DNA of 64,000 bases. Source: Epibacterium sp. Lineage in GTDB: Bacteria; Pseudomonadota; Alphaproteobacteria; Rhodobacterales; Rhodobacteraceae. Shown piece after piece: positions 6,314-37,686 of this stretch; position 1 is the stretch's first letter; every line of letters begins with the position of its first letter. The position numbers and the translations under genes are program-made. The stretch spans positions 229,975 through 293,974 of the forward strand of contig JBLXDQ010000004.1 of assembly GCA_048263945.1 (NCBI GenBank). Direction: 5' to 3'. The notes under the pieces are model-generated. The model ran no database searches. It was not told where the DNA came from and saw only the letters and a program-made list of their open reading frames with translations.

Positions 6314-7407
6314 CAGGCGTTCTCCTTCCGGAAGGCGAGGAAGATCTTCTCGATCGGCATCCGCACCATATTGTCGAGCGCGCCGGTGAAGAGGATCACG
6401 AGGGCCTGAATGACCACGATCAGCTCGGAGGGGATATTGGTCCACAGCGCGAGTTCAGCGCCGCCCTGATAGAGGAAGCCAAAGAGGATCGCGGCAAGGA
6501 AGACGCCAAAGGGATGGTTGCGGCCCATCAACGCCACGGCGATGCCGATAAAGCCCGCGCCTTCGGTGGCGTTCAGCACCAAGCGTTCCGCCTCGCCCAT
6601 CACGTTGTTGATCGCCATCAGACCGCAGAGCGCGCCGGAGATCAGCATGGTGATCATGATGATCCGCACCGGCGAGATGCCGGCATAGACCGCACCGCGT
6701 TCAGATTTGCCAAGTGCGCGGATCTCGTGGCCCAGCGGCGTGTGCCAGATCAGGGCCCAGATCAGCACACAGGCGGCGATGCCCACAAAGAGGGTCACGT
6801 TGGCCGGGGCGGATTTGGAAAACTCGATCCCGATGGGGGCGAGGATTTCATGCAGGGAGGGCAGTTGGGCGCTCTCTGGGAATTTCGCGGTGGCGGGATC
6901 CATCGCGCCTTTGGGTTTCAGCGCATTCACCAGCATGTAGTTCAGCACCGCAGCGGCGATGAAGTTGAACATGATGGTGGTGATGACGATATGGCTGCCC
7001 CGTTTGGCTTGCAGATAGGCCGGGATTGCGGCCCAAGCGGCCCCGAAAAGGCCTGCGCCAAGCGCGGCAAAGACCAACGCGATCGTCCAATGCGGGAAGG
7101 GGATGTAGAGGCAGACCAAGGCCAGACCCAGCCCTCCCAGCATCGCCTGACCCTCGCCACCGATGTTGAACAGCCCGGCATGGGCGGCAATCGCCACCGC
7201 AAGCCCGGTGAAGATAAAGTTGGTGGCGTAATAGAGCGTATAGCCCCAGCCATAGGTGGACCCCAGCGCGCCATTGACCATCAGGGTCAGCGCCTCGATC
7301 GGGCTTTCGCCGATGAAGAGGATCACCAGCGCGGAAATGAGGGCGGCCAGCAGGAGGCTGATCACCGGGATCAGCACCACATCGGCCCATTTAGGCATCT
7401 TATCCAT
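6313..7407 (-). CDS. ABC transporter permease (BMP/nucleoside-type)
   Basis: AGLFNIGGEGQ, GHEIRALG and GFIGIAVALMGRNHP motifs. Confidence 0.9.
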   Translation of the reverse strand: MDKMPKWADVVLIPVISLLLAALISALVILFIGESPIEALTLMVNGALGSTYGWGYTLYYATNFIFTGLAVAIAAHAGLFNIGGEGQAMLGGLGLALVCLYIPFPHWTIALVFAALGAGLFGAAWAAIPAYLQAKRGSHIVITTIMFNFIAAAVLNYMLVNALKPKGAMDPATAKFPESAQLPSLHEILAPIGIEFSKSAPANVTLFVGIAACVLIWALIWHTPLGHEIRALGKSERGAVYAGISPVRIIMITMLISGALCGLMAINNVMGEAERLVLNATEGAGFIGIAVALMGRNHPFGVFLAAILFGFLYQGGAELALWTNIPSELIVVIQALVILFTGALDNMVRMPIEKIFLAFRKENA

Positions 7408-19901: not shown

Positions 19902-19965
19902 GGGTAATGCAGCTGTTAACGGCAGCTCGGTGGGGGCCGAGACATCACTCTGAGAGGAGGCTGTT

Positions 19966-23705: not shown

Positions 23706-24356
23706 ATGGCCGGGCAGACAGACACGCTGATCGCGGCGATCCTTGAGGATATCGACGCAGGTCGCCTTGCGCCGGGGCAAGAGATTGACGAGACCGCGCT
23801 GGCCGCGCGTCATGGTGTCTCGCGCACGCCGATCCGCGAGGCCTATATCCAGCTTGAAGCCTCCGGTCTGATCCGCCGCCTGCCAAGGAAAGGCGCGGTG
23901 CTATTCAAGCCGAGCCTTGAGGAATTCCTCGCCATCCAAGAGGTCCACGCCCGGCTTGAGGGGCAGGCGGCCGGCCTTGCCGCCCGGCGCATCTCGCCCG
24001 AGTTGCGCGCGCGGCTCGAGGCGGCGGTCCTCGCCTGCGAGGCCCATGCGGCAGAGCAGGGCGACGGCGACCCGGATGGCTATTACCAAAAGAACCTTCG
24101 CTTTCACGAGGCGGTGGCCTTGGGGGCCGGCAATCCGGTGCTTTTGGAGATGATCAAGACCAATGCGCGCAAGCTGATGGCCTATTACCGCGCCCGCTAC
24201 CGCTATCCCGGCGCCATTGCGCAATCGGCGCTGGAGCATCGGGCGATTGCTGACCTGATCCTGACCCATGACCGCGACGGCGCCGAGGCCACGATGGAGG
24301 CGCATGTGCTGTTTGATCAGGTCACGGTGATGGACCTCTTGGCGGCGCTGGGTTAG
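23706..24356 (+). CDS. GntR-family regulator (FCD domain)
   Basis: GRLAPGQEIDETALAARHGVSRTPIREA wHTH; FHEAVALGAGNPVL and EHRAIADLI FCD motifs. Confidence 0.9.
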   Translation: MAGQTDTLIAAILEDIDAGRLAPGQEIDETALAARHGVSRTPIREAYIQLEASGLIRRLPRKGAVLFKPSLEEFLAIQEVHARLEGQAAGLAARRISPELRARLEAAVLACEAHAAEQGDGDPDGYYQKNLRFHEAVALGAGNPVLLEMIKTNARKLMAYYRARYRYPGAIAQSALEHRAIADLILTHDRDGAEATMEAHVLFDQVTVMDLLAALG

Positions 24357-25054
24357 CGGGCTTCAAAAAACCGCGCGATGGCCTCAGCCAAGGCGGGCTG
24401 GTCGGCGGGCTCCTCTAGGGTTGCGATGGCGCGGGCGTAGACCTCTGGCCCCAGCTCGGCGCGCATCTCCTCGGTCAGGGCACAGATGAAGGCGTGGGTC
24501 ATCTCCGGGTGGTGCTGGGTGGTGGCGATATGGTCGCCAAGGGTGAAGCCGGTGTTGACCTCCGCCCGTGTCATCAGGGGCAGGGCGCCTGCGGGCAGGT
24601 CGCGCACATATTCCACATGGGAGCCGTAGATCGAGACCACATCCGGCAGGTCACGCGCCCAATCCGGGCGGGCGAGAAGGTGATTCTCGGTCCGGCCATG
24701 CACCCAACCGCCGGGCAGGTTATCGACGCTCCCGCCCAAGGCCAGCGCAATCGCCTGATGGCCGAAACAACAGCCAAACAGCGGCAGTTTCCGCGCGTGC
24801 ATCTGGCGTATCAGCTCCAAAAGCTGCACCACCCAAGCCGCGCCAGAGCGGGTGGAGGCCGGGCTGCCGGTGATCATCACCCCATCGTAAGCACTTATAT
24901 CCAGAGGGAATTCGCCATCCTTCACCGCATAGACCGTGGTGCGCCAATCGGGGCGCGCCATCTGCAACAGGGCGGTGAATTTTTCGCCATCCTTGGGATG
25001 CGCCTCAGCAAAGGCGCTCTCGTCGGTATTGGTCATCAAAATGGCGATGTGCAT
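24353..25054 (-). CDS. Class I glutamine amidotransferase-like protein (candidate gamma-glutamyl-amide hydrolase)
   Basis: ITGSP oxyanion strand, GCCFGHQ nucleophile elbow, TQHHPE His-Glu; start MHIAIL at 25054. Confidence 0.85.
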   Translation of the reverse strand: MHIAILMTNTDESAFAEAHPKDGEKFTALLQMARPDWRTTVYAVKDGEFPLDISAYDGVMITGSPASTRSGAAWVVQLLELIRQMHARKLPLFGCCFGHQAIALALGGSVDNLPGGWVHGRTENHLLARPDWARDLPDVVSIYGSHVEYVRDLPAGALPLMTRAEVNTGFTLGDHIATTQHHPEMTHAFICALTEEMRAELGPEVYARAIATLEEPADQPALAEAIARFFEAR

Positions 25055-25090
25055 ATTTAGGCTTTCCATAAACATAAATCAGGTGCTTAA

Positions 25091-25100
25091 TAGTATACAT
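25091..25100. promoter_or_regulatory. Candidate GntR/FadR-type operator in the GATase/P450 divergent promoter
   Basis: TAGTATACAT (palindromic GTATAC core) in a 73 bp AT-rich gap. Confidence 0.35.
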
Positions 25101-25127
25101 GTGAAGCAGTTCAAAGGAAGCCCCGCG

Positions 25128-26387
25128 ATGACGATCTGGACCCCGAGTGACGATGGTTTTGCGGATCTGTCGAGCCACGACACCTTTGCCAAGGGCGCGC
25201 CGCATAACACCTTTGCCCGGCTGCGCCGCGAGGACCCGCTGCATTGGACCGAATATGCGGATGGGCAGAATTTCTGGTCGGTGACCCGCTACGAGGACAT
25301 CACCCAGATGAACAAGAACACTGAGGTGTTTTCCTCCGCGCGCGGCATTCGGATGGAGGATCAAACCTACGAGGAATACCTCGCGCGGCGCACCTTTCAG
25401 GAGACCGATCCGCCGGAGCATTCCCAAGTGCGGATGAAGCTGCTGAAGGCGTTTTCCAAGACCACAATGGCACAATATGAGGCGGACATCCGCACGCTCT
25501 GCGCCGAGATTTTGGACGCAGCACTGGCCAAGGGAACCTTTGATGCGACCAAAGAGATCGCCCGGCAATTGCCGATGCGGATGCTCGGTCGTGTGGTGGG
25601 CTTGCCCGATGCGGACCTGCCGTGGCTGGTGGAAAAGGGCGATGCGCTGATCGCCAATACGGACCCGGATTTCACCTCCCATGTGCTCGACAAGATGAAC
25701 ACGGACGAGTTCCGCATGATGCCCTTCAACTCGCCCGCCGGGGCGGAATTATACATCTATGCCAAGGAGTTGATGGAGGCGAAGGCGCGGGCGGGCGATA
25801 CTTCGGGCGTGCTCAACCTGATACTCGAGCCTGCCAAGGATGGCTCCACCATCACCGAAACCGAGTTCCGCAATTTCTTCTGCCTTCTGGTGGCCGCGGG
25901 CAATGACACCACGCGCTATTCCATCGCGGCGGGGCTACAAGCCCTGTGTCATCAGCCGGAACTGTTGGCGCAGATGCAGGCGGGCGGCGCGGTCTGGGAG
26001 ACGGCGGCGGATGAGATCATCCGCTGGGCAACGCCCGCGCTCTATTTCCGCCGCACCGCGACGCGCGATGTGGAGATGCACGGCAAGACGATCCGCGAAG
26101 GCGATAAGGTGCTCTATTGGTTCATCTCCGCCAACCGCGACGAGAGCTATTTTGACGACCCCTTCCGGGTGAACCTGATGCGCAGTCCCAACCGGCATCT
26201 GTCCTTTGGCCAGTTTGGCCCGCATGTCTGTCTGGGCATGTGGCTGGCGCGGCTGGAGGTGACGGTGCTGTTTCAGGAGCTTGCCAAGCGGATCAAGTCG
26301 ATCTCGCCGGCGGGCGAGCAGAAATTCCTGCGCTCGAACTTCGTCGGCGGCATCAAGGAATTGCCCGTGCGTATCGAGGCCGCTTAG
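25128..26387 (+). CDS. Cytochrome P450
   Basis: Start MTIWTPSDD at 25128; I-helix LLVAAGNDTT, EIIRW (ExxR) and heme motif HLSFGQFGPHVCLG. Confidence 0.95.
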   Translation: MTIWTPSDDGFADLSSHDTFAKGAPHNTFARLRREDPLHWTEYADGQNFWSVTRYEDITQMNKNTEVFSSARGIRMEDQTYEEYLARRTFQETDPPEHSQVRMKLLKAFSKTTMAQYEADIRTLCAEILDAALAKGTFDATKEIARQLPMRMLGRVVGLPDADLPWLVEKGDALIANTDPDFTSHVLDKMNTDEFRMMPFNSPAGAELYIYAKELMEAKARAGDTSGVLNLILEPAKDGSTITETEFRNFFCLLVAAGNDTTRYSIAAGLQALCHQPELLAQMQAGGAVWETAADEIIRWATPALYFRRTATRDVEMHGKTIREGDKVLYWFISANRDESYFDDPFRVNLMRSPNRHLSFGQFGPHVCLGMWLARLEVTVLFQELAKRIKSISPAGEQKFLRSNFVGGIKELPVRIEAA

Positions 26388-26417
26388 GCTGGGTTTGAAC
26401 GGATGAAGACTGGGACT

Positions 26418-26465
26418 CCCGGGCAATTGCCCGGGCAGCGCCCACCCTAGGCTCGGGCGCTGCCC
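26418..26465. repeat. REP-like hairpin element (same head as the paa intergenic copies)
   Basis: CCCGGGCAATTGCCCGGGCAGCGCCC...GGGCGCTGCCC. Confidence 0.6.
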
Positions 26466-26548
26466 TCTCCGAGGTGACGCGCCACAGATGATTAAGGCCA
26501 GCCGCACGGCAAAGATGCGCGCGGCCTCCAACAGGAAAGGAAGACCCG

Positions 26549-27838
26549 ATGAAGCCCCGCCTGCGCGCGCTGTTCTGCGATCATCTCAGCATTCTGCGGG
26601 GGAAATACCTGCCGCATTCCAAGATCGGCGATGGCGATACGCGCTTTTGCCGCTCGGTCTTTGGCACCCATTACGACCGCGATCTGTTGGACGCGCCGGG
26701 GTCCATGGTGAAACAGGGCCTGCCGGATATGGAGCTGCGCTGGCTCGGTGACGAGATCCGCGACAGCTGGCATGCTTCGACCAAGATCGTGCTTGGCGAT
26801 CTCTATGACGATGCGGGCGAGCCTTTGTCCCTGTGTCCGCGCGGCGCCCTGAAGCGCGCGGTGGCGGCCTGGCAGGCCAAGGGGCTGACGCCCAAGGTCG
26901 GGATCGAGCTGGAAGCCTATGCGCTGCAACCGGATGAATACGGGCGGCTGGTGCCCTATGACGCGCCGGGCGGAGTGGTCTATGGCACCGGCCCTTTTGC
27001 TGATCCTTTGCGGTTCAACGACCGGATCTGGGCGATGGCGGATGAGATGGGTTTCTCCCTCGATATGATCACCGCCGAGTTTGACACGCCTCAGTTTGAA
27101 TACACGCTGACCTTTGACGACGCGGTGAAGGCGGTGGACGATATCGTGCTGTTCCGCTTGATGGCGCGGGAGATCGCGCTGGAATATGGCATCGTGCTGA
27201 CCTTTATGCCGAAACCCGTGGCAGGGGGCGGTGGCTCGGGGATGCATGTGAACATGTCCTTCACGGATGAGGCCGGGGGCAATGCGCTCTCCTCTGGGCC
27301 GCGCGGCGGGCCGGAACATATGAACGATCTGGTGCGGGGCTGTCTCGCGGGATTTCTGCATCACCACAAGGGCTTGGCCGGTCTGATCGCGCCGACCGCC
27401 AATAGCTATATGCGGCTGCAACCGGGGAGCCTCTCGGGCTTTTGGCAGAACTGGGGCGGCGATCATCGCAATGTCACCACGCGGATCAGCTCGGAAGGCG
27501 GTGCCAAGGCGCGGCTGGAGCATCGGATGGCGGATGCGTCATCAAACCCCTATACCACCGTGGCGGCTCTGTTGCAGGCAGCGCGGCTCGGGATGGAGCA
27601 GGGCTATGCCTTGCCGCCGATGGAGACCGGCGACGGGTTTGACCGCACGGATACCCGCGAGAGCACCGCGATGACCTTGAAGGGCGCGATTGCTGATCTG
27701 GAAAAGGATACCGCTCTGGCGGAGGCGGTGGGGCGCGAGCTGGTCGCCAACCATGTGTTTATGAAACAGAAAGAGGTCCGCAAGACCCGCGATCTGGAAG
27801 GCGATGCCTTGCGGGATTTCTACGTGCATTTCGTCTGA
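26549..27838 (+). CDS. Glutamine synthetase-like protein (gamma-glutamyl-amine ligase, PuuA/IpuC-like class)
   Basis: GIELEAY, AEF..PQFE, PKP...GSGMH, NSYMRL, WGGDHR and RLEHR.AD..SNPY; 429 aa with a reduced N-domain, unlike housekeeping GlnA. Confidence 0.85.
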   Translation: MKPRLRALFCDHLSILRGKYLPHSKIGDGDTRFCRSVFGTHYDRDLLDAPGSMVKQGLPDMELRWLGDEIRDSWHASTKIVLGDLYDDAGEPLSLCPRGALKRAVAAWQAKGLTPKVGIELEAYALQPDEYGRLVPYDAPGGVVYGTGPFADPLRFNDRIWAMADEMGFSLDMITAEFDTPQFEYTLTFDDAVKAVDDIVLFRLMAREIALEYGIVLTFMPKPVAGGGGSGMHVNMSFTDEAGGNALSSGPRGGPEHMNDLVRGCLAGFLHHHKGLAGLIAPTANSYMRLQPGSLSGFWQNWGGDHRNVTTRISSEGGAKARLEHRMADASSNPYTTVAALLQAARLGMEQGYALPPMETGDGFDRTDTRESTAMTLKGAIADLEKDTALAEAVGRELVANHVFMKQKEVRKTRDLEGDALRDFYVHFV

Positions 27839-27952
27839 TCCCGGCCACAGGCTGACCCTGTTGCGCGCGCCTCAACCGGCGCGCGCTTGCGTTTTGGGCG
27901 GCGGCTGCGTCAGAGTGGAGAAAAGCCCTCAGTAGAGCAAAGAGCAGCACAA

Positions 27953-28690
27953 ATGGCCGAGACAGAGCAGGACAGCGGCGCCCCCCGCATGGAATTGAGC
28001 GAAGAGGTCGCGGCGGTCTGCCTCGGCCTCAAGGTGCCGCAGTCGCCCTTTTTGAACGCAAACCGGATCCAGCGGATCGAGGCGGCGCGCTACGAGGGGC
28101 AGGAGATCAAAGGGGCCTTGCATGTGGTGCAGGCAAGCGACCGGGTGCTTGAAGTCGGCGCCGGGATCGGCGTGGTGAGCGGCGTGGTGGCGCTGAACGC
28201 CAAGCCGGAAAAGGTGCTGTCCTTTGAGGCCAATCCAGGCTTGGTGCCGACGATCCAGATGCTGCATAAGATCAACGGGTTGGAGGGGCGGATCGAGCTG
28301 CGCAACCAGGTGCTCTATGCGGGCGAGGGGCGACCGGAGACGATGCCCTTTTATGTGCATGAAAGCTACCTCGGCTCTTCGCTAATCGAGCGTAAGGGGC
28401 GATCCGCGCAAACCGTTGACGTGCCGACCGCAGCGATGGAAGAGGTGATCGCCGAGCTGAACCCCACCGTGCTGATTATGGATATCGAGGGCGGCGAGCT
28501 GGCGCTTTTGGAGGTGATGCCGCTTGATCCCTTCCGCGCCATCGTGATCGAGTTTCACCCCGGCGCCTATGAGGTCGCGGGGATGCGCCGCTGCAAGACG
28601 ATCCTGCGCGAGGCGGGGTTTCAGAAGGTGGAGGAGGTCTCCACCCGCAATGTCTGGACCTGTGTGCGGGGTGAAGGGGCCACTTCTTAA
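27953..28690 (+). CDS. FkbM-family SAM-dependent methyltransferase
   Basis: VLEVGAGIG, SFEANP and LIMDIEGGE motifs; ATG at 27953. Confidence 0.8.
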   Translation: MAETEQDSGAPRMELSEEVAAVCLGLKVPQSPFLNANRIQRIEAARYEGQEIKGALHVVQASDRVLEVGAGIGVVSGVVALNAKPEKVLSFEANPGLVPTIQMLHKINGLEGRIELRNQVLYAGEGRPETMPFYVHESYLGSSLIERKGRSAQTVDVPTAAMEEVIAELNPTVLIMDIEGGELALLEVMPLDPFRAIVIEFHPGAYEVAGMRRCKTILREAGFQKVEEVSTRNVWTCVRGEGATS

Positions 28691-28703
28691 GCGACAAGCG
28701 GGA

Positions 28704-28830
28704 CCGCGCCGCGTCAGCGGCGCCACCGAAGGACGCGCGCCCGAAGCCTTTGGCTTCGGGCGCGCTTTGCTTCTGGTAGCCTGCGGCCCCCGGAGCGGTG
28801 GCCACAGGCACCCGCGCTCCGCCGCAAATG
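28704..28830. repeat. REP-like multi-hairpin element between convergent genes
   Basis: GCGCCGC-GTCA-GCGGCGC and GCGCGCCCGAAGCC-TTT-GGCTTCGGGCGCGC hairpins. Confidence 0.55.
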
Positions 28831-30186
28831 TCAGCTCACTGCCGCAAAGCCTGCATCGAGCGCGTCGAGGATCTGGGTCACATCCGCCTCGGTCAGCACC
28901 AGCGGCGGCGACAGGATGATATTTGGACCAGAGACCCGCACCATGGCGCCGCTCTGATAGGCGACCTCTTGCACGGTGCCGATGGTCTTTTTGTCGATGG
29001 CGGCCTTGGTGGCGCGGTCGCTGACCAGTTCCAGCGCGCTCATCAGCCCGTGGCCGCCGCGCACATCGCCGATCAACGCGTATTTCGCCTGCAGCGCCAA
29101 GAGCCCCTCGTAGAGTTGCGCCCCGCGCGCCGCCGCATTGGTTGGCACGTCGAGCCGTTTGGTCTCCGCCAGACAGGCCAGCGCCGCTGCCGCGCCAACC
29201 GGGTGGCCGGAGTAGGTATAGCCATGGCCAATCGCCGCCTTGCCGGTTTCGTCTTTCTCAAACACCTCCACCAGCCGTTCGGAGATCATCAGCGCGCCAA
29301 AGGGGAAATAGCCATTGGTGATCGCCTTGGCGGTGCACATCATATCGGGCTCTACCCCCCAATGGCGCGAACCGGTCCAGGAGCCGGTGCGGCCAAAGGC
29401 GGTGATCACCTCGTCGGCGATCAGCAAGATGCCGTTCTTGCGGCAAATCTCCGCCACGCCGGGCATAAAGCTTTTGTGCGGCGGGATCACGCCGCCTGCG
29501 CCCAGGATCGGCTCCATGATGAAGGCGGCGATGGTGCCCGCCCCCTGAAAGGCGATATCATCCTCAAGCGCCGCAAGGCAGAGCTGCGCCAGACGTTCCG
29601 GATCGTTTTCGTTGAAGGGGTTGCGATAGGTATAGGGCGCGGGGATGTGGTGGCAGCCGGCCAAAAGCGGCTCGTATGCGGTGCGGAAATTGGCGTTGCC
29701 ATTCACCGAGGCGCCACCGAAATGGGTGCCGTGGTAGCCCTTCTTCAGGCTGAGGTATTTCACCCGCGCAGGCTCGCCGCGCACCTTATGATACTGGCGC
29801 GCCAACCGCAGGGCGCTTTCCACCGAATCCGAGCCGCCGGAGGTGAAAAACGCCCGCGAAAGCCCATCGGGGGCGAAGAAGTCGCGCAGCTCCTCGGCCA
29901 GTTGGATCACCTGATCATTGGTGGTGCCACGGAAGGTGGAATAATAGGGCAGCACGTCGAGCTGGGCCGCGATGGCGTCCTTGACCGGCTGGCAGGAGAA
30001 CCCGAGGTTGACGTTCCACAGGCCGCCCACGGCGTCCACCACCTCATGCCCGTCGATATCCTTGATCCGCACGCCCGAGGCGCCGGTCACGATGGTCGGC
30101 GGATTGGCGAGACTGTCGGCGGGATGCGCCATTGGGTGCCAGAGGCTGCGGGCGTTGTGCTCTTTGAGGAAATTCGCGTCTTTCAT
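28831..30186 (-). CDS. Class III PLP aminotransferase (omega-amine/diamine transaminase-like)
   Basis: DAVGGLWNVNLG, TSGGSDSVE, YHG, FIMEPILGAGG, DEVITAFGRTG, TAKAITNGYFP. Confidence 0.9.
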   Translation of the reverse strand: MKDANFLKEHNARSLWHPMAHPADSLANPPTIVTGASGVRIKDIDGHEVVDAVGGLWNVNLGFSCQPVKDAIAAQLDVLPYYSTFRGTTNDQVIQLAEELRDFFAPDGLSRAFFTSGGSDSVESALRLARQYHKVRGEPARVKYLSLKKGYHGTHFGGASVNGNANFRTAYEPLLAGCHHIPAPYTYRNPFNENDPERLAQLCLAALEDDIAFQGAGTIAAFIMEPILGAGGVIPPHKSFMPGVAEICRKNGILLIADEVITAFGRTGSWTGSRHWGVEPDMMCTAKAITNGYFPFGALMISERLVEVFEKDETGKAAIGHGYTYSGHPVGAAAALACLAETKRLDVPTNAAARGAQLYEGLLALQAKYALIGDVRGGHGLMSALELVSDRATKAAIDKKTIGTVQEVAYQSGAMVRVSGPNIILSPPLVLTEADVTQILDALDAGFAAVS

Positions 30187-30244
30187 CTCGGGGTCTCCAA
30201 ATGCGCGGCCGCTCAGGTGGCTGCGGTGGGAAAATCGGGGAAAA

Positions 30245-31012
30245 TCAGGTTGGGTATTCCGGCGGGCAAACCCCGCCGATACGTTGGGTGAGGGCGAGGC
30301 CCGCCGCGCGCAGCGCCTCTGGGATCGCCTGTTTCTGCGCCTCGCTCATCCGCGAGGTGGGGGCGGCCACGGCCAGCGCGCCGATCACCGCCCGGTCGGG
30401 GCCAAAGATCGGCACCGCGTGGGAATGCACCTCGGCCTCATAGCCGCCAACGGATTGCGCCATGCCAGAGGCGCGCACGTCAGCGATCAGCGCGCGGATC
30501 GCAGCGGGGTCGGTTTGCGTGTGGGCGGTGCGGGCCTCTAGCGGGCCGTTTAGCACGCGTTCTGCAAAGCCGGGCTCGGCAAAGCCCAGCACCGCAAGGC
30601 CGGAGGCGGTGCCGTGAAAGGTCAGCACCTCGGCATCCTCCATCATCACCTTGGTCGCGTGCTGTGGCGCATAGGCGTGGCTGAGCGAGGCCAACTGATC
30701 GCCTTGCAGCAGCGAAAGGTGGGTGGTCTCGCCCGTTTCCTCCGACAGCTCCCGCAGCACCCGACGCGAGGCGGAGAGAATCGGCACGCTCGCCTCGCGC
30801 AGCGCGGCCAGCCGCAAAACCTGCGGCCCCAGGCGGTAGGAGCGGGCGTCATCAAGCTGTTCGACGAATCCCACCTCCTGCAATTCGCTCATCAGGCGAT
30901 AGACGGTGGCCTTGTTCATGCCCGACAGCCGGGTGAGGTCGCTGAGGCCGATCTCCAACCGCCCATGGTTGAAATGGGTCAACAAACTCAAGGCTTTGGC
31001 GGTGGTTCCCAT
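30245..31012 (-). CDS. IclR-family transcriptional regulator
   Basis: Start MGTTAKALSLL at 31012; N-terminal HTH, YRLGP, LSEETGET and HGTASGLAVL. Confidence 0.9.
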   Translation of the reverse strand: MGTTAKALSLLTHFNHGRLEIGLSDLTRLSGMNKATVYRLMSELQEVGFVEQLDDARSYRLGPQVLRLAALREASVPILSASRRVLRELSEETGETTHLSLLQGDQLASLSHAYAPQHATKVMMEDAEVLTFHGTASGLAVLGFAEPGFAERVLNGPLEARTAHTQTDPAAIRALIADVRASGMAQSVGGYEAEVHSHAVPIFGPDRAVIGALAVAAPTSRMSEAQKQAIPEALRAAGLALTQRIGGVCPPEYPT

Positions 31013-31086
31013 GGGTGGTGACATTCCCCGGTGGCTGAAATTCTGGACGCGGATGATCGTGAGTGATCGGCGCCCTTTCATTTTTG

Positions 31087-31147
31087 TTGACAGATATCCC
31101 CCATGGCTGTCAATCTAAATTCAAACCAATGGTTCACATAATGAACC
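31087..31147. promoter_or_regulatory. Divergent iclR/tctC promoter region with palindromes
   Basis: TTGACAG (31087-93) / CTGTCAA (31107-13) inverted pair with a TTGACA -35 on each strand; GGTTCA-CATAA-TGAACC palindrome at 31131-31147. Confidence 0.5.
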
Positions 31148-31233
31148 GATGGGGAATTTCAATACTGCGAGCGGCGGGAAACGTCGCCACCTCACCAACG
31201 GCAACTCGAATGGCGAACAGGGAGAGACAGCCA

Positions 31234-32178
31234 ATGACCGTGACTTCAGTACTCAAAGGATGCGTGGCCGCAGCGGGCCTCGTGCTGGCGGCGGGGGCCG
31301 CACTTGCGGATTACCCCGAAAAGCCGGTGAATTTTATCGTGCCCTGGCCGCCGGGCGACCTTGAGGACGTGCTGACCCGCATGATCGCCGAGGATTTCCA
31401 GACCAAATACGGTGTCGCGGCGGCGGTGGTGAACAAGCCCGGTGGCGGCGGTGGTCCCTTCCCCGGGGCGATCGAGGTCGCCAATTCGCCGGCCGATGGT
31501 TACACCGTGGGGTCGTTTGTGATCGGGGTGCCGGTGATGGGGCATCAGATCGACATTCCGCCGCTCACGCCGGCGAAGTTCGACCCGCTCGGCATCTTCC
31601 TCACCTATCCCTTTGTCATCGCGACCTCGGGCGATGCGCCCTATAGCTCCATGGCGGAGCTGGCGGCCTATGCGAAGGACAATGACGTGGTGCTGGGCCA
31701 CTTTGGCGACGTGCTGACGCCGACGCAGGTGACCAAGGCCTTTGCCAAGGCGGAGGGGTTCGAATGGGGCTCTGATGCGGCCTTTGACGCGCTGGATTGC
31801 AACACGCTGGCCTCGGGCGATGCGGATGTGATCAACACCACGTTGCAGCTGATCCTGCCCTGCATCGATCAGGTCAAGGTGCTGGTCTCCATCACCGATG
31901 AGCGGATCCCGCTGGTGCCGGATGCGCCCGCGATTGGCGAGCTGAACCCGGATCTGAACATCGCCCTGTGGAACGGTCTGTTTGTGACCAAGGACACCCC
32001 GCAGGACGTGCGCGACAAGATCATTGAGGTGGCGCAGGAGACTGTCTTCTCGGAACGTGCACAAGCGGTGGCGGCCGAGACCGGCGCGCTGGTCTATTGG
32101 CAAAACGCCGATGAGAGCGCGGCCCGGATTGCCAATGATATCGAGACCATGGCGCGGATTGGCGCTGCGCTGGAGTAA
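31234..32178 (+). CDS. tctC: Tripartite tricarboxylate transporter substrate-binding protein (TctC/Bug family)
   Basis: Signal peptide; YPEKPVNFIVPW, VVNKPGGGG, PADGYT, PDAPAIGE and WNGLFVTKDTP. Confidence 0.85.
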   Translation: MTVTSVLKGCVAAAGLVLAAGAALADYPEKPVNFIVPWPPGDLEDVLTRMIAEDFQTKYGVAAAVVNKPGGGGGPFPGAIEVANSPADGYTVGSFVIGVPVMGHQIDIPPLTPAKFDPLGIFLTYPFVIATSGDAPYSSMAELAAYAKDNDVVLGHFGDVLTPTQVTKAFAKAEGFEWGSDAAFDALDCNTLASGDADVINTTLQLILPCIDQVKVLVSITDERIPLVPDAPAIGELNPDLNIALWNGLFVTKDTPQDVRDKIIEVAQETVFSERAQAVAAETGALVYWQNADESAARIANDIETMARIGAALE

Positions 32179-32286
32179 TCCTCCCCGAGCCTGTCGCCGG
32201 TGCCATGTCTTGTGGCCCGGCGGCCTTTTCGACTTCTTGGGGGCCAAGACCCCAAGCCGCGACGACCTTCCCAGTCAGAGAAGCAT

Positions 32287-32817
32287 ATGCAAAGCGAACG
32301 CGAACGCAGATTTGTTGGCCCGCGCCGGGGGCAGCTTCTGTTTGTCCTGACCTTCCTTGTCCTGTCGGTGCTGCTGCTGAGCCAGATCGGCACGCAGACC
32401 GCATGGGTGAAAAAGACCGCAGTCTTTGCTCAGCCGCGGTTCTGGCCTGCGGTGGGCGTCGGCGGCATGGTGCTATTTACAGCGCTGCATCTGTGGAAAC
32501 TGCCGTTTCGCCGGTTTGAGCGGACGGATTTTCGCGAGGCGCTGCGCTGGGCCTCGGCGCTGGAATTTGCCCTTTGGTTTATGGGGTATGTGACGTTGGT
32601 GCCCATCGTTGGCTACCTGCCAGTGACGCTGGCCTTTGTGCTCTTGCTCTCTCACCGCATGGGCTATCGCGGCCGCAAGATGCAGATCATCGGCGTGCTC
32701 TTTGCCATTGCGATTGTGGTGATCTTCAAGGGTCTTTTGGCGGTGCGCATCCCGGGTGCTGCGCTTTATGAATACTTTCCGGATGGCCTGCGCAGCTTTG
32801 CCATCCTCTATCTCTGA
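32287..32817 (+). CDS. tctB: TTT small membrane subunit TctB
   Basis: Four hydrophobic segments, PRFWP motif, located between tctC and tctA. Confidence 0.8.
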   Translation: MQSERERRFVGPRRGQLLFVLTFLVLSVLLLSQIGTQTAWVKKTAVFAQPRFWPAVGVGGMVLFTALHLWKLPFRRFERTDFREALRWASALEFALWFMGYVTLVPIVGYLPVTLAFVLLLSHRMGYRGRKMQIIGVLFAIAIVVIFKGLLAVRIPGAALYEYFPDGLRSFAILYL

Positions 32818-32832
32818 GACCGAGGTGCCCTC

Positions 32833-34452
32833 ATGGACCTGATCCTTTCCGCCCTCGATATTCTGATGCGCTGGGACGTGGCGCTGGCGTTGCTTGCGGG
32901 CTCTGTCGGCGGTGTGCTGATCGGTGCCATTCCGGGCGTGGGGCCTGCTGTCGCCATCGCGATCCTGCTGCCTGCGACCTTTTCCATGGACCCGATTGTG
33001 GGGCTCACGGTGCTGTTGGGCATTTATGGCTCGTCGATGTATGGCGGGTCTATTCCGGCGATCCTGATCAATACCCCCGGCACAGCGGTCAATGCGCTAA
33101 CCACCTATGACGGCTTTCCGATGACCGCGCGGGGCGAGCCGCGCCGGGCCTTGAGCCTTGCCTATTCGTCGAGCTTTTTTGGCGGCATCTTCTCGGTCAT
33201 CTGTCTGATCCTCTTTGCCCCCGTGCTGGCCAAGGTGGCGCCACTGTTTGGCGCGCGGGAGATTTTTCTAGCCGCTCTGTTGGGGTTGATCCTCGTGGTG
33301 GTGGCACACCGGGGGCAGGCTTTGATTGCCGGGGCGCTGGCGTGTCTTGGCATCTTCCTCAACACCATCGGCATGGAGCCGGTGAAATACACCCAGCGCT
33401 ACACCTTTGGCACCGATGCTTTGGGCTCGGGCGTAAACCTCATCGTGGTGGTGCTGGGGCTATTTGCGATTTCCCAAGCCTTTGTGCTGCTGACCGAAGA
33501 AGACGAGAAAGTGCGCCTGACCAAGCTGCGTGGCGGGCTATTCCAAGGCCTGCGCGAGCTGGCGCGGCATCCGCGGGTGGCCTCTGTGTCGGCGGGCTTT
33601 GGCGTGATCATGGGGATGATCCCCGGCGTGGGCGAGTTCACCGCGCAGTTCATGTCTTATACTTACGCGCAGAAGACCTCGAAACGGCCGCAGGATTTTG
33701 GCAATGGCTCCTCCGAGGGGCTGATCGCGGCGGAGACCTCGAACAACGCGGTGCCGGCCGCCGCTATGGTGCCCCTCTTGGCGTTGGGCATCCCGGGCGA
33801 GGCGCTGACGGCGATGATGCTCTCGGTGTTTTACGTGCATAACGTGGTGCCGGGGCCGGGGCTGTTTCAGAACGACATGGACTTTGTCGTGGCGCTTTAT
33901 CTCGCGCTGCTGATCCTGAACGTGCTGGTCTTGCTGTTCCTTCTCTGCGCCACCAATGCGCTCATTCAGGTGGTGCGCATCCCCAATCGGTTTCTCGGGG
34001 TGGCGGTGCTGACCCTGAGCTTTGTTGGCGTCTACTCGCTGCGCAATTCCGCGACAGACTGCCTGATGGCGGCAGGGTTTGGGGTCTTTGGCTTTGTGCT
34101 GAAACGCCTCAACCTGCCGGCGGTGCCGATCATCCTCGGCATGGTGCTGGGCGGCATTATGGAGGTCAAACTGCGCGCGGCCATGGCGCGGGTGAAGACC
34201 CCTTTTGATTTCATTGACCGCCCGGTGGCGTTCATCCTGTTCTCTATCATCTTGATCGTGCTTGCCGCCCATATCCTGCGGATCCGCAAGGAGGCGCGCG
34301 AGCTGAAGGAGGCCGAATGGCAGACCAAGACCTCATCAACGCGCTTCGGAGCACTACTGTTGCGCCGCAGAACCTCTTTCTTGAAGGAGCATGGACGCCG
34401 GGTGCGGGATCGCCATGCGAAGTTACTTCGCCGATTGACGGATCTGTTCTGA
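32833..34452 (+). CDS. tctA: TTT large membrane subunit TctA (apparent C-terminal read-through into the ALDH gene)
   Basis: GAIPGVG, YGGSIPAILINTPGT, AAETSNNA and LALGIPG motifs; the ORF runs 136 bp into the next gene. Confidence 0.9.
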   Translation: MDLILSALDILMRWDVALALLAGSVGGVLIGAIPGVGPAVAIAILLPATFSMDPIVGLTVLLGIYGSSMYGGSIPAILINTPGTAVNALTTYDGFPMTARGEPRRALSLAYSSSFFGGIFSVICLILFAPVLAKVAPLFGAREIFLAALLGLILVVVAHRGQALIAGALACLGIFLNTIGMEPVKYTQRYTFGTDALGSGVNLIVVVLGLFAISQAFVLLTEEDEKVRLTKLRGGLFQGLRELARHPRVASVSAGFGVIMGMIPGVGEFTAQFMSYTYAQKTSKRPQDFGNGSSEGLIAAETSNNAVPAAAMVPLLALGIPGEALTAMMLSVFYVHNVVPGPGLFQNDMDFVVALYLALLILNVLVLLFLLCATNALIQVVRIPNRFLGVAVLTLSFVGVYSLRNSATDCLMAAGFGVFGFVLKRLNLPAVPIILGMVLGGIMEVKLRAAMARVKTPFDFIDRPVAFILFSIILIVLAAHILRIRKEARELKEAEWQTKTSSTRFGALLLRRRTSFLKEHGRRVRDRHAKLLRRLTDLF

Positions 34453-35801
34453 CCACATTGGCCACCGCCACGGGGGCGGATGTCGACCGGGCGGTGGCCT
34501 CGGGGCGGCGGGCCTTTGAGGATGGGCGCTGGTCGCGGCTGGCCCCGGCGGCGCGCAAGAAGGTGCTGCACCGGATCGCGGATCGGATCGAGGCGGAGGC
34601 GGTTGCGCTGACGGTCCTCGGCGTGCGCGACAATGGCACCGAGTTCAATATGGCGCTGAAGGCGGAGGCCGGATCGGCGGCGGGCACTTTCCGTTACTAC
34701 GCCGAGGCCTTGGACAAGGTGGCGGGCGAAGTGGCCCCCACCGCGCCGGATGTGCTGGGGCTGGTGCATCGCACCCCCGTTGGCGTGGTGGCGGCGATTG
34801 TGCCGTGGAATTTCCCGCTGATGATCGGCGCCTGGAAACTGGCGCCCGCGCTGGCGATGGGCAATTCGGTGGTGCTGAAGCCGGCCGAGACGGCCTCGCT
34901 GTCGCTGTTGCGGCTCGCCGAGATTTGCGCCGAGTGTGGTCTGCCGGATGGGGTGCTGAATGTGGTGACCGGGCCGGGGGCGGTCACGGGCGCGGCGCTG
35001 GCCGAGCATATGGACGTGGACGTGATGGTCTTCACCGGCTCTGGCGCGACGGGGCGGCGGCTGCTGGAGGCTTCGGCGCGCACGAACCTCAAGCGGTGCT
35101 ATCTGGAGTTGGGCGGCAAATCCCCCAACATCGTCTTTGCGGATGCCAAGGATCTGGATCAGGCCGCCAAAGTCTCGGCCATGGGGATCTTCCGCAACTC
35201 GGGTCAGGTCTGTGTTGCGGGCTCGCGCCTGTTGGTCGAAGCCTCGACATACGAGGAATTTGTGGCGCGGATGGTGGCCCATGCCGAGGCCTTGCGGGTG
35301 GGCGATCCACTGGATTTGGCCTCGGACGTGGGCGCGGTGAATTCTGAAGTGCAGCTGGCGGCGAACCTTGCCCATGTGGAGCGCGCAGTGGCCGAGGGCG
35401 GCGAGCTGCGCTGTGGCGGTGGGCGCATTTTGGCGGAAACCGGTGGCAGCTATATGGCGCCGACCGTGGTGACTGGGGTGACGCAAGAGGCGAGCCTGTT
35501 CCAGAAGGAGGTCTTTGGCCCGGTTCTGGCGGTGACGCCCTTCGAGACAGAGGAGGAGGCGCTGCGGCTTGCCAATGCCACCGACTATGGCCTTGCGGCG
35601 GCGGTCTGGACCCGCGACCTGTCGCGCGCCCATCGCTGCGTGGCGGGCATTCGGGCCGGCGTTGTGCATGTGAACACCTATGGCGGCGCGGATAATACGG
35701 TGCCCTTGGGCGGCGTGGGGCAATCCGGAAATGGGCATGACAAGTCGTTGCATGCTTTGGAGAAATACGTCGATCTGAAGACGGCTTGGATCCAGCTGTG
35801 A
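34317..35801 (+). CDS. NAD-dependent aldehyde dehydrogenase, PuuC-like
   Basis: IVPWNFP, KPAE, FTGSG, LELGGKSP, catalytic Cys in GQVCVAGSR, EVFGP; C-terminal GNGHDKSLHALEKY..LKTAWI resembles PuuC; AGGAGG RBS. Confidence 0.88.
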   Translation: MADQDLINALRSTTVAPQNLFLEGAWTPGAGSPCEVTSPIDGSVLTTLATATGADVDRAVASGRRAFEDGRWSRLAPAARKKVLHRIADRIEAEAVALTVLGVRDNGTEFNMALKAEAGSAAGTFRYYAEALDKVAGEVAPTAPDVLGLVHRTPVGVVAAIVPWNFPLMIGAWKLAPALAMGNSVVLKPAETASLSLLRLAEICAECGLPDGVLNVVTGPGAVTGAALAEHMDVDVMVFTGSGATGRRLLEASARTNLKRCYLELGGKSPNIVFADAKDLDQAAKVSAMGIFRNSGQVCVAGSRLLVEASTYEEFVARMVAHAEALRVGDPLDLASDVGAVNSEVQLAANLAHVERAVAEGGELRCGGGRILAETGGSYMAPTVVTGVTQEASLFQKEVFGPVLAVTPFETEEEALRLANATDYGLAAAVWTRDLSRAHRCVAGIRAGVVHVNTYGGADNTVPLGGVGQSGNGHDKSLHALEKYVDLKTAWIQL

Positions 35802-35808
35802 GGAGAGC

Positions 35809-35870
35809 GGGGTCTTGGGCACGCCAAGACCCCGCGGCCTCCGGCGGGAGTATTTTAGGAAAGATGAAGA
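35809..35870. repeat. REP-like element
   Basis: GGGGTCTTGG-GCACG-CCAAGACCCC hairpin, then GGCCTCCGGCGGGAGTATTTTAGGAAAGATGAAG; the CCAAGACCCC core recurs near 32243 and at 45438. Confidence 0.55.
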
Positions 35871-35900
35871 GGGGCGCATGGGCGACCCGGGGAGGTTGTG

Positions 35901-37133
35901 ATGAGCGCGGACAAGACCATTCTGGTGGCGGGGACCTGGGACACCAAGGACGACGAGCTGTCCTATCTGGCGGAGGTGATCCGTGGGCAAGGCGGGCATG
36001 TGCTGAGCATGGATGTGAGCGTGCTGGGCGAGCCGCATCTGCCGGTGGATGTGTCCAAACATCAGGTGGCGGAGGCGGCGGGCAGCTCCATTCAGGCGGC
36101 GATCGACAGTGGCGATGAGAATACCGCGATGCAGATCATGGGCGCGGGTGCGGCCAAGCTGGCGCTGGATCTCTGGCGGGCGGGTCGCATTCACGGCGTG
36201 ATCGTGCTGGGGGGCACCATGGGCACCGATCTGGCGCTCGACCTTTGTGGGGCGCTGCCTTTGGGGGTGCCGAAGTATATCGTCTCGACCGTGGCCTTCT
36301 CGCCCCTGTTGCCGCCGGAGCGCATTCCGGCGGATGTGCAGATGATCCTTTGGGCCGGTGGGCTCTATGGGCTGAACGATATCTGCAAGGCCTCGTTGAG
36401 CCAGGCGGCGGGGGCGGTTCTAGGGGCGGCGCGCGCGGTGGAGGCACCCCGGTTTGAGCGGCCGATGGTGGGGATGACCTCCTTTGGCAAGACGGTGCTG
36501 CGTTACATGGTGACCCTGAAGCCTGAGCTGGAGCGGCGTGGCTTTGACGTGGCGGTGTTTCATGCCACCGGCATGGGCGGGCGCGCCTTTGAGAGCCTTG
36601 CGGGCGAGGGGGCCTTTGCCGCGGTGATGGATTTTGCGCCGCAGGAGGTGAGCAATCATCTCTTTGGTGGGCTTTCAGCCGGTGAGGGGCGGATGACCCA
36701 TGCGGGGCGCGCCGGGGTGCCACAGATGGTGGCGCCGGGCTGCTATGATCTCGTCGATTTTGTCGGCTGGCATGCGGTGCCGAAGGCGCTGGAGGGGCGG
36801 GAGTGTCATGCGCATAACCGCCTGTTGACCTCGGCGATGCTGGAGGGCGAGGAGCGGCGGGCGGTGGCGCGGGAGATTTGCCAAAAGCTGGCTGGCGCGA
36901 CGGGGCCGGTGACCTTGTTCCTACCGGTGATGGGCTGCAATGAATGGGATCGCGACGGCGGGCCCCTGCATGATGGCGCAGCCTTGGCGGGGTTTTGCGA
37001 GGAGATCCGGCGTGCGGTGCCGACCTCAGTCACGCTGCAGGAACTCGATTGCCACATCAACGACGCGGCCTTTTGCACGGCGGTTCTGGCGCAGTTTGAC
37101 GCTTGGGTCGCTGAGGGCGTGATTGCGCGCTGA
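35901..37133 (+). CDS. UPF0261 / Tm-1-like ATP-binding domain protein
   Basis: ILVAGTWDTKDDEL, MDVS, GGTMGT, LPLGVPKYIVST, GMTSFG, VFHATGMGGRAFE, PG..D.VDF, HAHN. Confidence 0.82.
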   Translation: MSADKTILVAGTWDTKDDELSYLAEVIRGQGGHVLSMDVSVLGEPHLPVDVSKHQVAEAAGSSIQAAIDSGDENTAMQIMGAGAAKLALDLWRAGRIHGVIVLGGTMGTDLALDLCGALPLGVPKYIVSTVAFSPLLPPERIPADVQMILWAGGLYGLNDICKASLSQAAGAVLGAARAVEAPRFERPMVGMTSFGKTVLRYMVTLKPELERRGFDVAVFHATGMGGRAFESLAGEGAFAAVMDFAPQEVSNHLFGGLSAGEGRMTHAGRAGVPQMVAPGCYDLVDFVGWHAVPKALEGRECHAHNRLLTSAMLEGEERRAVAREICQKLAGATGPVTLFLPVMGCNEWDRDGGPLHDGAALAGFCEEIRRAVPTSVTLQELDCHINDAAFCTAVLAQFDAWVAEGVIAR

Positions 37134-37211
37134 GGGGGCTCTGGACCTTCTACGCGGATTGGGCAACAGTCCACCAGACGTTTGGAACTGAGGCTGAAGG
37201 ACCGCGCGCCG

Positions 37212-37637
37212 ATGAGATTTGAACCCGACCCGCAGGACCCTGAAACGCTGATGATCCATGATCCCGGCTGTCAGCAGCTGGTCGGCTATGAGACGCGGAT
37301 TGATGCGGCGGGCGCTTGCACGGTGAGCCTTGATGTGGGGCCGCAGCATCTCAACCGGCATGGCATCCTGCATGGCGGCATGGTGGCGACGGTGCTCGAC
37401 GTGGTTTGCGGCAATACCGCCTCGCGCTATTTCGACCCCGAGGGGCACGCGGCCTTGGTGACCGTGGCGCTGAACCTGTCCTATATCGCGGCGATGGGGC
37501 CGGGGCGGATCACCGCGACGGCGCGGGCGACGGGTGGTGGCAAAAGCACGGCCCATGTGATGGGCGAGTTGCACGACGTGGACGGGCGTTTGCTCGCCAC
37601 TGCGACGGGGATTTTCCGCCGGATCACCAAGCGCTGA
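37212..37637 (+). CDS. PaaI-family hotdog-fold thioesterase
   Basis: HLNRHGILHGGMVATVLD motif; VTVALNLSYI. Confidence 0.85.
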   Translation: MRFEPDPQDPETLMIHDPGCQQLVGYETRIDAAGACTVSLDVGPQHLNRHGILHGGMVATVLDVVCGNTASRYFDPEGHAALVTVALNLSYIAAMGPGRITATARATGGGKSTAHVMGELHDVDGRLLATATGIFRRITKR

Positions 37638-37653: not shown

Positions 37654-37686
37654 AAAAAATGGCGGGAGATACTCCCGCCCTTTTTG
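37654..37686. terminator. Bidirectional intrinsic terminator between convergent thioesterase and rpe
   Basis: AAAAAA-T-GGCGGGAG-ATA-CTCCCGCC-C-TTTTTT. Confidence 0.85.

Follow-up and report, generated by a model that had tools for sequence, protein, structure and literature searches.

The region between positions 23,706 and 37,637 of a 64,000-nucleotide stretch of Epibacterium sp. DNA (contig JBLXDQ010000004.1, positions 229,975 to 293,974; hereafter the window) carries a gene cluster whose core consists of two modules. Module 1 holds a GntR-family regulator, a protein of the class I glutamine amidotransferase (GATase) fold, a cytochrome P450 and a glutamine synthetase (GS)-like ligase, with or without a ferredoxin, while module 2 holds a class III aminotransferase, an IclR-family regulator, a tripartite tricarboxylate transporter (TTT; TctCBA), an aldehyde dehydrogenase (ALDH) and a UPF0261 protein. 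With a probability of roughly 0.6, the two modules together constitute an upper pathway that converts a phenolic arylethylamine of the tyramine or dopamine type to 3,4-dihydroxyphenylacetate (homoprotocatechuate). This reading is built on gene content, residue conservation, co-conservation, and a physical and phylogenetic link to the homoprotocatechuate (hpa) ring-cleavage genes and to a decarboxylase gene, from which we infer each chemical step, the order of the steps, the exact substrate and the role of the UPF0261 kinase homolog. An earlier interpretation of the same sequence (the original prediction) had suggested a gamma-glutamylation and P450 pathway for an amine, possibly an aryl-alkyl amine feeding phenylacetate-type catabolism.

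In the proposed route, the TTT system would probably import a carboxylate-bearing precursor such as L-tyrosine or L-DOPA, from which a DOPA-decarboxylase-like enzyme of the hpa operon would make the amine. The ligase would join the gamma-carboxyl group of glutamate to this amine at the expense of ATP, the P450 would oxidise the now neutral amide, and the GATase-fold hydrolase would take the glutamate off. Because the genomes are without an HpaB hydroxylase, the most likely P450 reaction would be hydroxylation of the ring at position 3, giving a catechol. Module 2 would then carry the catechol amine to the aldehyde (transaminase) and to the arylacetate (ALDH), and the resulting homoprotocatechuate would be opened by the hpa meta-cleavage genes on contig C7 of the same genome. 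The specific step from gamma-glutamyl-tyramine to gamma-glutamyl-dopamine is put forward only tentatively, at somewhat less than even odds.

In order to assess the conservation of the cluster, one genome per species was scanned, yielding 80 species-level loci with a ligase ortholog (73-98% identical), in which the other genes were counted by tblastn with the window proteins. The amidotransferase gene accompanies the ligase gene in all 80 loci and the P450 gene in 78, so that the co-conservation proposed as a check in the original prediction is borne out. The GntR gene lies next to the amidotransferase gene whatever stands upstream and, being present in 72/80 loci, belongs to the cluster. The genes of module 2 follow with 65 (IclR), 64 (TctC), 61 (aminotransferase) and 54 loci (ALDH and UPF0261 each), and the complete nine-gene set is found in 49 of the 80. 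Such an arrangement is far beyond chance. Both halves remain linked where the second is inverted (L008) or shifted upstream (L075, L076, L080), and the whole set also occurs in Oricola and Ahrensia, members of another order, to which it has been transferred. It is located on a megaplasmid in Ruegeria sp. TM1040 and is likewise carried by Tritonibacter mobilis. The P450 gene is always followed by that of the ligase, as also on a Novosphingobium plasmid, which has a P450 gene (57% identity), a ligase gene (49% identity) and an ALDH gene in succession; in Streptomyces the P450 is 40% identical and the ligase gene comes first, and the P450-ligase pair is adjacent in Embleya as well. The FkbM methyltransferase (20/80 loci) and the hotdog thioesterase (9/80 loci) were rejected as core parts, the latter being a lineage-specific addition.

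It is most improbable that the modules are unrelated neighbours, or that module 1 is biosynthetic and makes, for example, a gamma-glutamyl catechol metabolite together with the FkbM methyltransferase. Each module does have a separate regulator and separate conserved promoter elements that share no motif, FkbM enzymes are typical of biosynthesis, and R. pomeroyi and some other taxa have module 1 without a nearby aminotransferase, ALDH or UPF0261 gene. However, module 2 genes are present in 24/24 P450-carrying genomes, the modules stay adjacent through inversions and transfer to another order, the methyltransferase is confined to the minority of loci given above, and the neighbours are catabolic ring-cleavage genes. 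The R. pomeroyi site consists of the GntR, amidotransferase, P450, ligase, ferredoxin, methyltransferase, IclR and TctCBA genes, and a close Ruegeria relative has its aminotransferase, ALDH and UPF0261 genes at another place, beside a second aminotransferase gene and an APH-type kinase gene.

The sink assigned to the two-module pathway follows from its association with hpa genes. In the genome of the window these lie on C7 (204335-211833) and are orthologous to a set located upstream of the GntR gene in Oricola. The products HpaD (3,4-dihydroxyphenylacetate 2,3-dioxygenase), HpaE and HpaH score above their NCBIfam cut-offs (423 vs 321, 794 vs 638 and 370 vs 351, respectively), and their genes are adjoined by those of HpaI and an HpaG-like protein. 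Inside this operon sits the gene of a group II pyridoxal phosphate (PLP) decarboxylase, of which the best solved relative is a DOPA decarboxylase (7xin, 2e-117), with aromatic amino acid decarboxylases of plants and animals next in rank. HpaD above cut-off is also found in five named cluster-carrying species. The Oricola set comprises an FAH-family gene, a group II decarboxylase gene, a VOC-type and a LigB-type dioxygenase gene (the former extradiol, its product 78.5% identical to the HpaD of the window's genome), an HpaE-type ALDH gene and a MarR regulator gene. In four further genera, hpaE-hpaD-(decarboxylase)-hpaG-hpaH stand directly beside whichever module 1 and 2 genes the locus holds: two of these loci have both modules, one shows no amidotransferase or decarboxylase gene, and the fourth has only the amidotransferase, P450 and ligase genes within the stretch fetched. 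In one of the four genera nearly all genes are on one strand. Altogether, the adjacency of hpaD/hpaE/hpaG to the module is seen in five alphaproteobacterial lineages.

The association extends to less similar P450-ligase pairs. On a Streptomyces canus plasmid, the ligase and P450 genes are divergent from genes for a ferredoxin, an FAD-dependent oxidoreductase, an acetoacetate-decarboxylase (ADC)-family protein, an ALDH, an annotated 3,4-dihydroxyphenylacetate 2,3-dioxygenase and an FAH-family protein. On the Novosphingobium plasmid, the P450-ligase-ALDH genes lie between a dioxygenase gene and genes of the ADC and FAH families, ALDH and ferredoxin; the dioxygenase bears the annotation catechol 1,2-dioxygenase and shares 33-37% identity with the LigB-fold dioxygenase of Oricola. 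The pairing of P450 and ligase with homoprotocatechuate-type ring cleavage thus recurs in three alphaproteobacterial orders and in actinomycetes.

A phylogenetic profile of 151 genera of the family (one genome each), with statistics that ignore shared ancestry, points in the same direction. A P450 ortholog is present in 24 genera, all of which have orthologs of the UPF0261 protein, the aminotransferase and the decarboxylase, and HpaD is found in 21 of these 24 vs 23 of the other 127 (odds ratio 32, p 9e-11). The UPF0261 protein and HpaD co-occur in 39 genomes, with 10 having the former only and five the latter only (p 3e-21). As a control, PaaA is weakly associated with the P450 (odds ratio 3.5, p 0.013), seven P450 carriers being without it. 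The aryl-alkyl amine of the original prediction was therefore right in spirit, being most consistent with a phenolic arylethylamine, whereas the feed into phenylacetate (paa) catabolism is not supported: adjacency to paa genes is restricted to one clade, and the thioesterase, taken as a further hint, is rare among the loci. The real partner is the hpa meta-cleavage pathway together with the DOPA-decarboxylase-like enzyme. The caution that the substrate cannot be read from sequence stands for the exact compound, while its class can be deduced from the genomic context.

This context also bears on an aliphatic route resembling the isopropylamine (Ipu) and putrescine (Puu) pathways, in which an alkylamine would be glutamylated and hydroxylated terminally, and the resulting omega-amino acid transaminated and oxidised, the proximity of hpa genes being incidental. 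The nearest solved structures of the P450 include the terminal-methyl hydroxylases CYP125, CYP124 and CYP153, the ALDH is related to PuuC, and the aminotransferase family includes polyamine and omega-amino-acid transaminases. Nevertheless, such a route is very unlikely: independent gene arrangements in Rhodobacterales and in Rhizobiales bring hpa and DOPA-decarboxylase-like genes next to the module, ring-cleavage genes adjoin the P450-ligase pair on the Streptomyces and Novosphingobium plasmids, the phylogenetic profile has a nested structure, and the UPF0261 protein keeps phenol-binding residues.

In the classical route, the conversion of tyramine or 4-hydroxyphenylacetate to homoprotocatechuate needs HpaB, part of the HpaBC hydroxylase. 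No match to the HpaB models TIGR02309 or TIGR02310 was found in the genome of the window at E 0.001, and HpaB exceeds its cut-off in one of the 151 genera vs 44 for HpaD. Since HpaB is absent, and since many P450-less genomes have module 2, the decarboxylase and the hpa genes, a division of labour is suggested in which module 2 would be sufficient for a ready-made catechol (dopamine, or L-DOPA via the decarboxylase) and module 1 would be an add-on that brings a non-catechol precursor to the catechol level. More broadly, it is possible, although we rate it below an even chance, that marine roseobacters, as well as Rhizobiales, sphingomonads and actinomycetes, obtain the catechol without HpaBC, through gamma-glutamyl-tyramine (or -tyrosine), P450 ring hydroxylation and untagging, and that UPF0261 proteins have a natural role in phenolic-amine catabolism.

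The same design and sink could be combined with another P450 oxidation of a different aromatic amine, such as O-demethylation of a methoxylated arylethylamine (e.g. 3-methoxytyramine), hydroxylation of phenylethylamine or benzylic hydroxylation. The link to hpa fixes only the end product, a catechol of the 3,4-dihydroxyphenylacetate type; an O-methyltransferase-like FkbM gene is part of the cluster in some loci (20/80), and a second P450 in the Streptomyces cluster, accompanied by a ferredoxin of its own, hints at more than one oxidation. Yet the P450 is not close to the aromatic O-demethylase P450s among solved structures, benzylic hydroxylation gives no homoprotocatechuate, and, with HpaB absent, the P450 would most simply take over the missing 3-hydroxylation. 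These other oxidations are therefore unlikely. A different order of steps would have the alpha-amino group of L-tyrosine tagged, the P450 producing gamma-glutamyl-L-DOPA and the hydrolase L-DOPA, with decarboxylase, transaminase and ALDH leading on to homoprotocatechuate, so that module 1 would serve as a tyrosine 3-hydroxylase ahead of the decarboxylase. In keeping with this, the decarboxylase is closest to a DOPA decarboxylase, its occurrence with module 2 and hpa in P450-less genomes agrees with the addition of a tyrosine entry to an existing L-DOPA route, and a TTT importer suits an amino acid bearing a carboxylate. The characterised GS-like ligases, however, use amines (polyamines, alkylamines, ethanolamine and anilines) and are not known to act on alpha-amino acids, and we regard tagging of the amino acid as distinctly unlikely. 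The location of the decarboxylase gene about 3 kb from the P450 gene in several genera is compatible with either step order.

Ring hydroxylation of a glutamylated arylethylamine by module 1 presupposes a ligase that accepts amines. Alignment with E. coli GlnA and PuuA shows that Glu129/131/212/220/357, His269 and Arg339/344/359 (GS numbering) are invariant, i.e. that all metal, ATP and glutamate ligands of glutamine synthetase are kept, while the FDGS motif (Asp50, Ser53) and the flap residue Glu327 are missing, losses that PuuA shares. In true glutamine synthetase, Asp50, Ser53 and Glu327 bind and deprotonate ammonium. The ligase scores far under the curated NCBIfam cut-offs of GlnA, type III GS and PuuA, and is about 27% identical to PuuA (model NF045547, 161 vs a cut-off of 650). 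In the GATase-fold protein the Cys-His-Glu motif set is intact (nucleophile motif GCCFGHQ and HPE motif), and it is proposed to be the hydrolase removing glutamate; it can be aligned with PuuD over 70 residues only (23% identity) and is not a PuuD-type C26 peptidase. The P450 has an intact haem loop (FGQFGPHVCLG), I-helix (AGNDTT) and EIIR motif, and its nearest solved structures are CYP125, CYP126, CYP124 and CYP153. The protect-oxidise-deprotect logic assumed in the original prediction is consistent with these residue patterns.

Some irregularities were noted among the module 1 orthologs. At a Paracoccaceae locus (L081, about 3500-8700), about 4.8 kb separates the amidotransferase gene from the P450 gene, compared with about 70 bp in related loci, and this spacer may be inserted mobile-element DNA. 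In one genus (G090), a single in-frame TGA interrupts the P450 ortholog and four interrupt the UPF0261 ortholog of the same contig (C27:6803-8054 and 19280-20509), and in another (G045) the P450 gene is split into two pieces (C2:54087-54931); these may reflect joint decay of the pathway or assembly errors, the G090 genome being only 56% complete.

In module 2, the nearest solved relatives of the class III aminotransferase are amine omega-transaminases (5lh9, 1.6e-131), and a phospho-lyase role was set aside because of this kinship. The ALDH shares 49% identity with E. coli PuuC and 40% with FeaB and falls under the PuuC equivalog cut-off (524 vs 850), and TctC is only distantly like solved TctC/Bug proteins. 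The UPF0261 protein has MarK of Novosphingobium aromaticivorans as its best solved relative (PDB 9mpy, 5.6e-52), the only UPF0261 protein for which an activity has been demonstrated: it uses ATP to phosphorylate acetovanillone and related aromatics at the phenolic hydroxyl group (PMC12624787). When the residue roles described for MarK are mapped onto an alignment of 59 UPF0261 orthologs, including a paralog on contig C22, the fold is accompanied by an invariant Asp-Thr-Lys (DTK) motif of the ATP site, invariant ligands of the phenolic oxygen (Gly195 and His219) and an invariant stacking His304. Unlike these, the contacts to the acetyl side chain are replaced: Thr196 by Lys (57/59), Phe283 by Leu, Ile285 by Asp and His348 by Trp (59/59 each). 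The pattern would suit a phenolic substrate whose side chain is different and possibly cationic. The conserved partners are also different, being the transaminase, ALDH and TTT transporter here and an acvCDEF-type biotin carboxylase and a phosphatase in the case of MarK.

A paralogous module of the same genome (C22:32675-43370) comprises genes for a dimethylglycine (DMG)-dehydrogenase-like fusion protein, a UPF0261 protein (57% identity), TctCBA, an ALDH (68% identity), a class III aminotransferase-fold protein of PRK06148 (phospho-lyase) type and an APH-like kinase. Possible substrates of this module are phenolic amines with N-methyl or beta-hydroxyl groups, for example octopamine or synephrine.

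The P450 must obtain electrons from partners encoded elsewhere, since a ferredoxin gene is absent at the cluster; the window contains neither a ferredoxin nor a ferredoxin reductase gene. A 2Fe-2S ferredoxin gene directly follows the ligase gene in 39 of the 80 loci, among them those of R. pomeroyi, Leisingera and Oricola (e.g. L001, 11301-11615), and no ferredoxin reductase gene was seen in the roseobacter-type loci with listed genes. In the Tritonibacter clade, to which the window belongs, no ferredoxin gene stands behind the ligase gene (27838-27887 in the window), which is instead followed by a hairpin and the FkbM gene, the latter taking the place held by the ferredoxin gene in other clades. 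A complete class I system is present elsewhere in the genome (C24:9746-12636), where genes for a P450, a 2Fe-2S ferredoxin and a putidaredoxin-reductase-like flavoprotein are accompanied by a LysR regulator gene; this ferredoxin is 49.5% identical to the one in the R. pomeroyi cluster. A second ferredoxin is encoded on contig C8. C24 is a 39-kb contig with a ParB-like gene and is probably a plasmid. A separate puu-like set (GS-like, amidotransferase-fold, GS-like) is located on C8 (25272-28629), so that the glutamyl-tag strategy would be used at least twice in this genome.

Phylogenetic footprints in the divergent promoter regions are conserved over wide distances. The TTTACATATTTA-like and TAATATACAT-like elements between the GATase and P450 genes are recognised across roseobacters, Oricola and Ahrensia, and the elements between the IclR and tctC genes from roseobacters to Oricola, Ahrensia and a Rhizobiaceae metagenome-assembled genome. 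The latter, TTGACAG-N13-CTGTCAA and GGTTCACATAATGAACC, constitute a putative IclR operator.

Several observations weigh against the conversion of tyramine or dopamine by the two modules acting together. The main points concern its favoured detail: CYP125, CYP124 and CYP153, the nearest solved kin of the P450, hydroxylate terminal alkyl carbons and not aromatic rings, and TTT binding proteins normally bind carboxylates and not amines, which makes the imported compound uncertain. In addition, the R. pomeroyi cluster is without aminotransferase, ALDH and UPF0261 genes, and shared ancestry is left out of account in the profile statistics. The two divergent promoter regions have no operator motif in common, and a genome-wide search, which took in the hpa locus, found no second copy of either candidate, so that co-regulation of these genes is not claimed. 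The frequent occurrence of module 2, decarboxylase and hpa genes in P450-less genomes makes the P450 step an add-on.

Compared with known systems, the cluster most resembles in design the Ipu pathway for isopropylamine in Pseudomonas sp. KIE171, of which similar clusters exist in Arthrobacter aurescens TC1 (PMC6776027). Judged by gene types, the likeness extends to the GS-like gamma-glutamyl-amide ligase, the P450 hydroxylating the amide, the amidotransferase-fold hydrolase and the downstream ALDH. In contrast to Ipu, the probable substrate is aromatic and the probable sink homoprotocatechuate, the cluster is without a ferredoxin reductase gene (and the window without a ferredoxin gene), and there are, in addition, genes for a transaminase, a TTT transporter and a UPF0261 kinase homolog. 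The Pip pathway of Pseudomonas sp. KU43P for piperidine and pyrrolidine, and the mycobacterial CYP151 clusters, act on cyclic secondary amines; the known clusters carry their own ferredoxin and reductase, and, as is proposed here, gamma-glutamylation by a GS-like enzyme precedes P450 hydroxylation. The hpa context here indicates an aromatic amine instead. The ligase residue pattern, the co-inherited adjacent P450 and the triad-bearing GATase that mark Ipu- and Pip-type systems are all found, while a dedicated ferredoxin and reductase are not.

With the Puu pathway of E. coli, the cluster has in common the protect-oxidise-deprotect logic, the losses in the ammonium site of PuuA, the similarity of the ALDH to PuuC and a class III transaminase. 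It is different in that the ligase and ALDH fall below the PuuA and PuuC equivalog cut-offs, the hydrolase is of another type than PuuD, and the P450 takes the place of the flavin oxidase PuuB, no PuuB-like gene being present in the cluster. In the aniline and 1-naphthylamine systems (AtdA1/A2, TdnQ/T, NpaA1; PMC11335346), an aromatic amine is likewise gamma-glutamylated for an oxygenase, with a GATase-like partner. Their oxygenase is a Rieske dioxygenase that takes the nitrogen off the ring, whereas here, where the cluster has no Rieske oxygenase gene, a P450 is found and the nitrogen would be on the side chain and removed later by transamination.

The known route for tyramine and dopamine consists of an amine-oxidising enzyme, an aldehyde dehydrogenase and HpaBC acting on 4-hydroxyphenylacetate. 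The genome of the window agrees with it in carrying hpa meta-cleavage genes and departs from it in that HpaB is absent, a transaminase stands in for the oxidase and the glutamyl-tag/P450 module is the candidate hydroxylase. As far as the 2010 work is cited in PMC10606097, this tyramine/dopamine catabolon takes biogenic aromatic amines to 3,4-dihydroxyphenylacetate, which is opened by Hpa meta-cleavage enzymes. Phaeobacter inhibens respires tyramine while P. gallaeciensis does not, a difference for which no gene link is given (PMC4148982, PMC5730936). The papers searched (on gamma-glutamyl-tyramine or -dopamine catabolism, on R. pomeroyi data for these genes and on roseobacter tyramine genes) hold no description of the present pathway, and the only context in which they mention gamma-glutamyltyramine is the biosynthesis of methanofuran/methylofuran, in which an enzyme of another family forms it.

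Algae, animals and decaying protein are sources of tyramine, dopamine and L-DOPA, and much of the consumption of compounds of this kind is due to roseobacters. If the module fills the gap left by HpaBC, catecholamine precursors would join the alkyl, cyclic and aniline-type amines for which glutamate serves as a protecting group, and an undescribed route of marine biogenic-amine recycling would be added. It would also give functions to a family of GS-like proteins and P450s that about one in six of the sampled roseobacter genera possess, and place the UPF0261 kinase in a defined pathway, which would be the first natural physiological role for UPF0261 kinases. The cluster is carried by the tractable strains Ruegeria sp. 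TM1040, Tritonibacter mobilis and R. pomeroyi.

The genes and sequence elements of the cluster, called by Pfam and NCBIfam scans, are listed in the table below. All genes named in the original prediction were recovered in place; its list had, however, overlooked the FkbM methyltransferase gene and left out the GntR gene, and the true start of the P450 gene is the ATG at 25128. The true start of the IclR gene is probably near 31024. The terminator-like hairpin behind the ligase gene suggests that the P450 and ligase genes form a two-gene transcript.

Table. Features of the cluster, in window coordinates.
Feature	Position	Strand	Evidence and remarks
GntR/FCD-family regulator	23706..24356	+	Pfam GntR and FCD; convergent with GATase gene, 3' ends overlap
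Class I GATase-fold protein, proposed gamma-glutamyl-amide hydrolase (deprotection)	24353..25075	-	PF00117, 1.9e-16
Divergent GATase/P450 intergenic region, 52 bp, putative promoter or GntR operator	25076..25127		Conserved TTTACATATTTA-like and TAATATACAT-like elements
Cytochrome P450, 419 aa, proposed oxidation of gamma-glutamylated amine	25128..26387	+	PF00067; divergent from GATase gene
GS-like ligase, proposed ATP-dependent gamma-glutamyl-amine synthetase (protection)	26549..27838	+	PF00120, 1e-71
GC-rich hairpin followed by T-run, terminator-like, 3' of ligase gene	27863..27886	+	Sequence
FkbM-family methyltransferase, accessory, start uncertain	27887..28690	+	TIGR01444, 64.7 vs cut-off 37.7; between ligase and transaminase genes
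Class III omega-aminotransferase, proposed amine to aldehyde	28831..30186	-	NF005683, 740 vs cut-off 575
IclR-family regulator	30245..31081	-	Pfam HTH_IclR and IclR_C; co-directional with transaminase gene
Conserved IclR/tctC intergenic elements	31087..31147		TTGACAG-N13-CTGTCAA (31087-31113); palindrome GGTTCACATAATGAACC (31131-31147)
TctC with signal peptide	31234..32178	+	Pfam TctC
TctB	32200..32817	+	Pfam TctB
TctA	32833..34452	+	Pfam TctA
NAD(P)-dependent ALDH, proposed aldehyde to arylacetate	34317..35801	+	PF00171, 2e-160
UPF0261 (Tm-1-like) ATP-binding protein, homolog of aromatic kinase MarK	35898..37133	+	PDB 9mpy, 5.6e-52
Hotdog-fold (PaaI-like) thioesterase	37182..37637	+	PF03061
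Bidirectional terminator-like hairpin closing the cluster; ribulose-phosphate epimerase gene also at this end	37661..37679		Sequence

Upstream of the cluster, a module of atuA, carboxyltransferase and biotin-carboxylase genes (window 18093-23627) is inserted between paaA and the GntR gene in this lineage only (L004-L006 and the window), and in TM1040 paaA directly adjoins the GntR gene. A biotin carboxylase gene close to that of a UPF0261 kinase homolog is reminiscent of acetovanillone catabolism, where a kinase is combined with a carboxylase, but this pairing is not conserved among the loci. Within the cluster, the ALDH frame opens 136 nt ahead of the tctA stop codon (34317-34452), so that about 45 codons overlap in different frames. 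A similar overlap is suggested in related loci (L004, L012), and it amounts to 118 nt by the RefSeq annotation of TM1040. The early start of the ALDH looks real, as the alignment with PuuC begins at ALDH residue 11.

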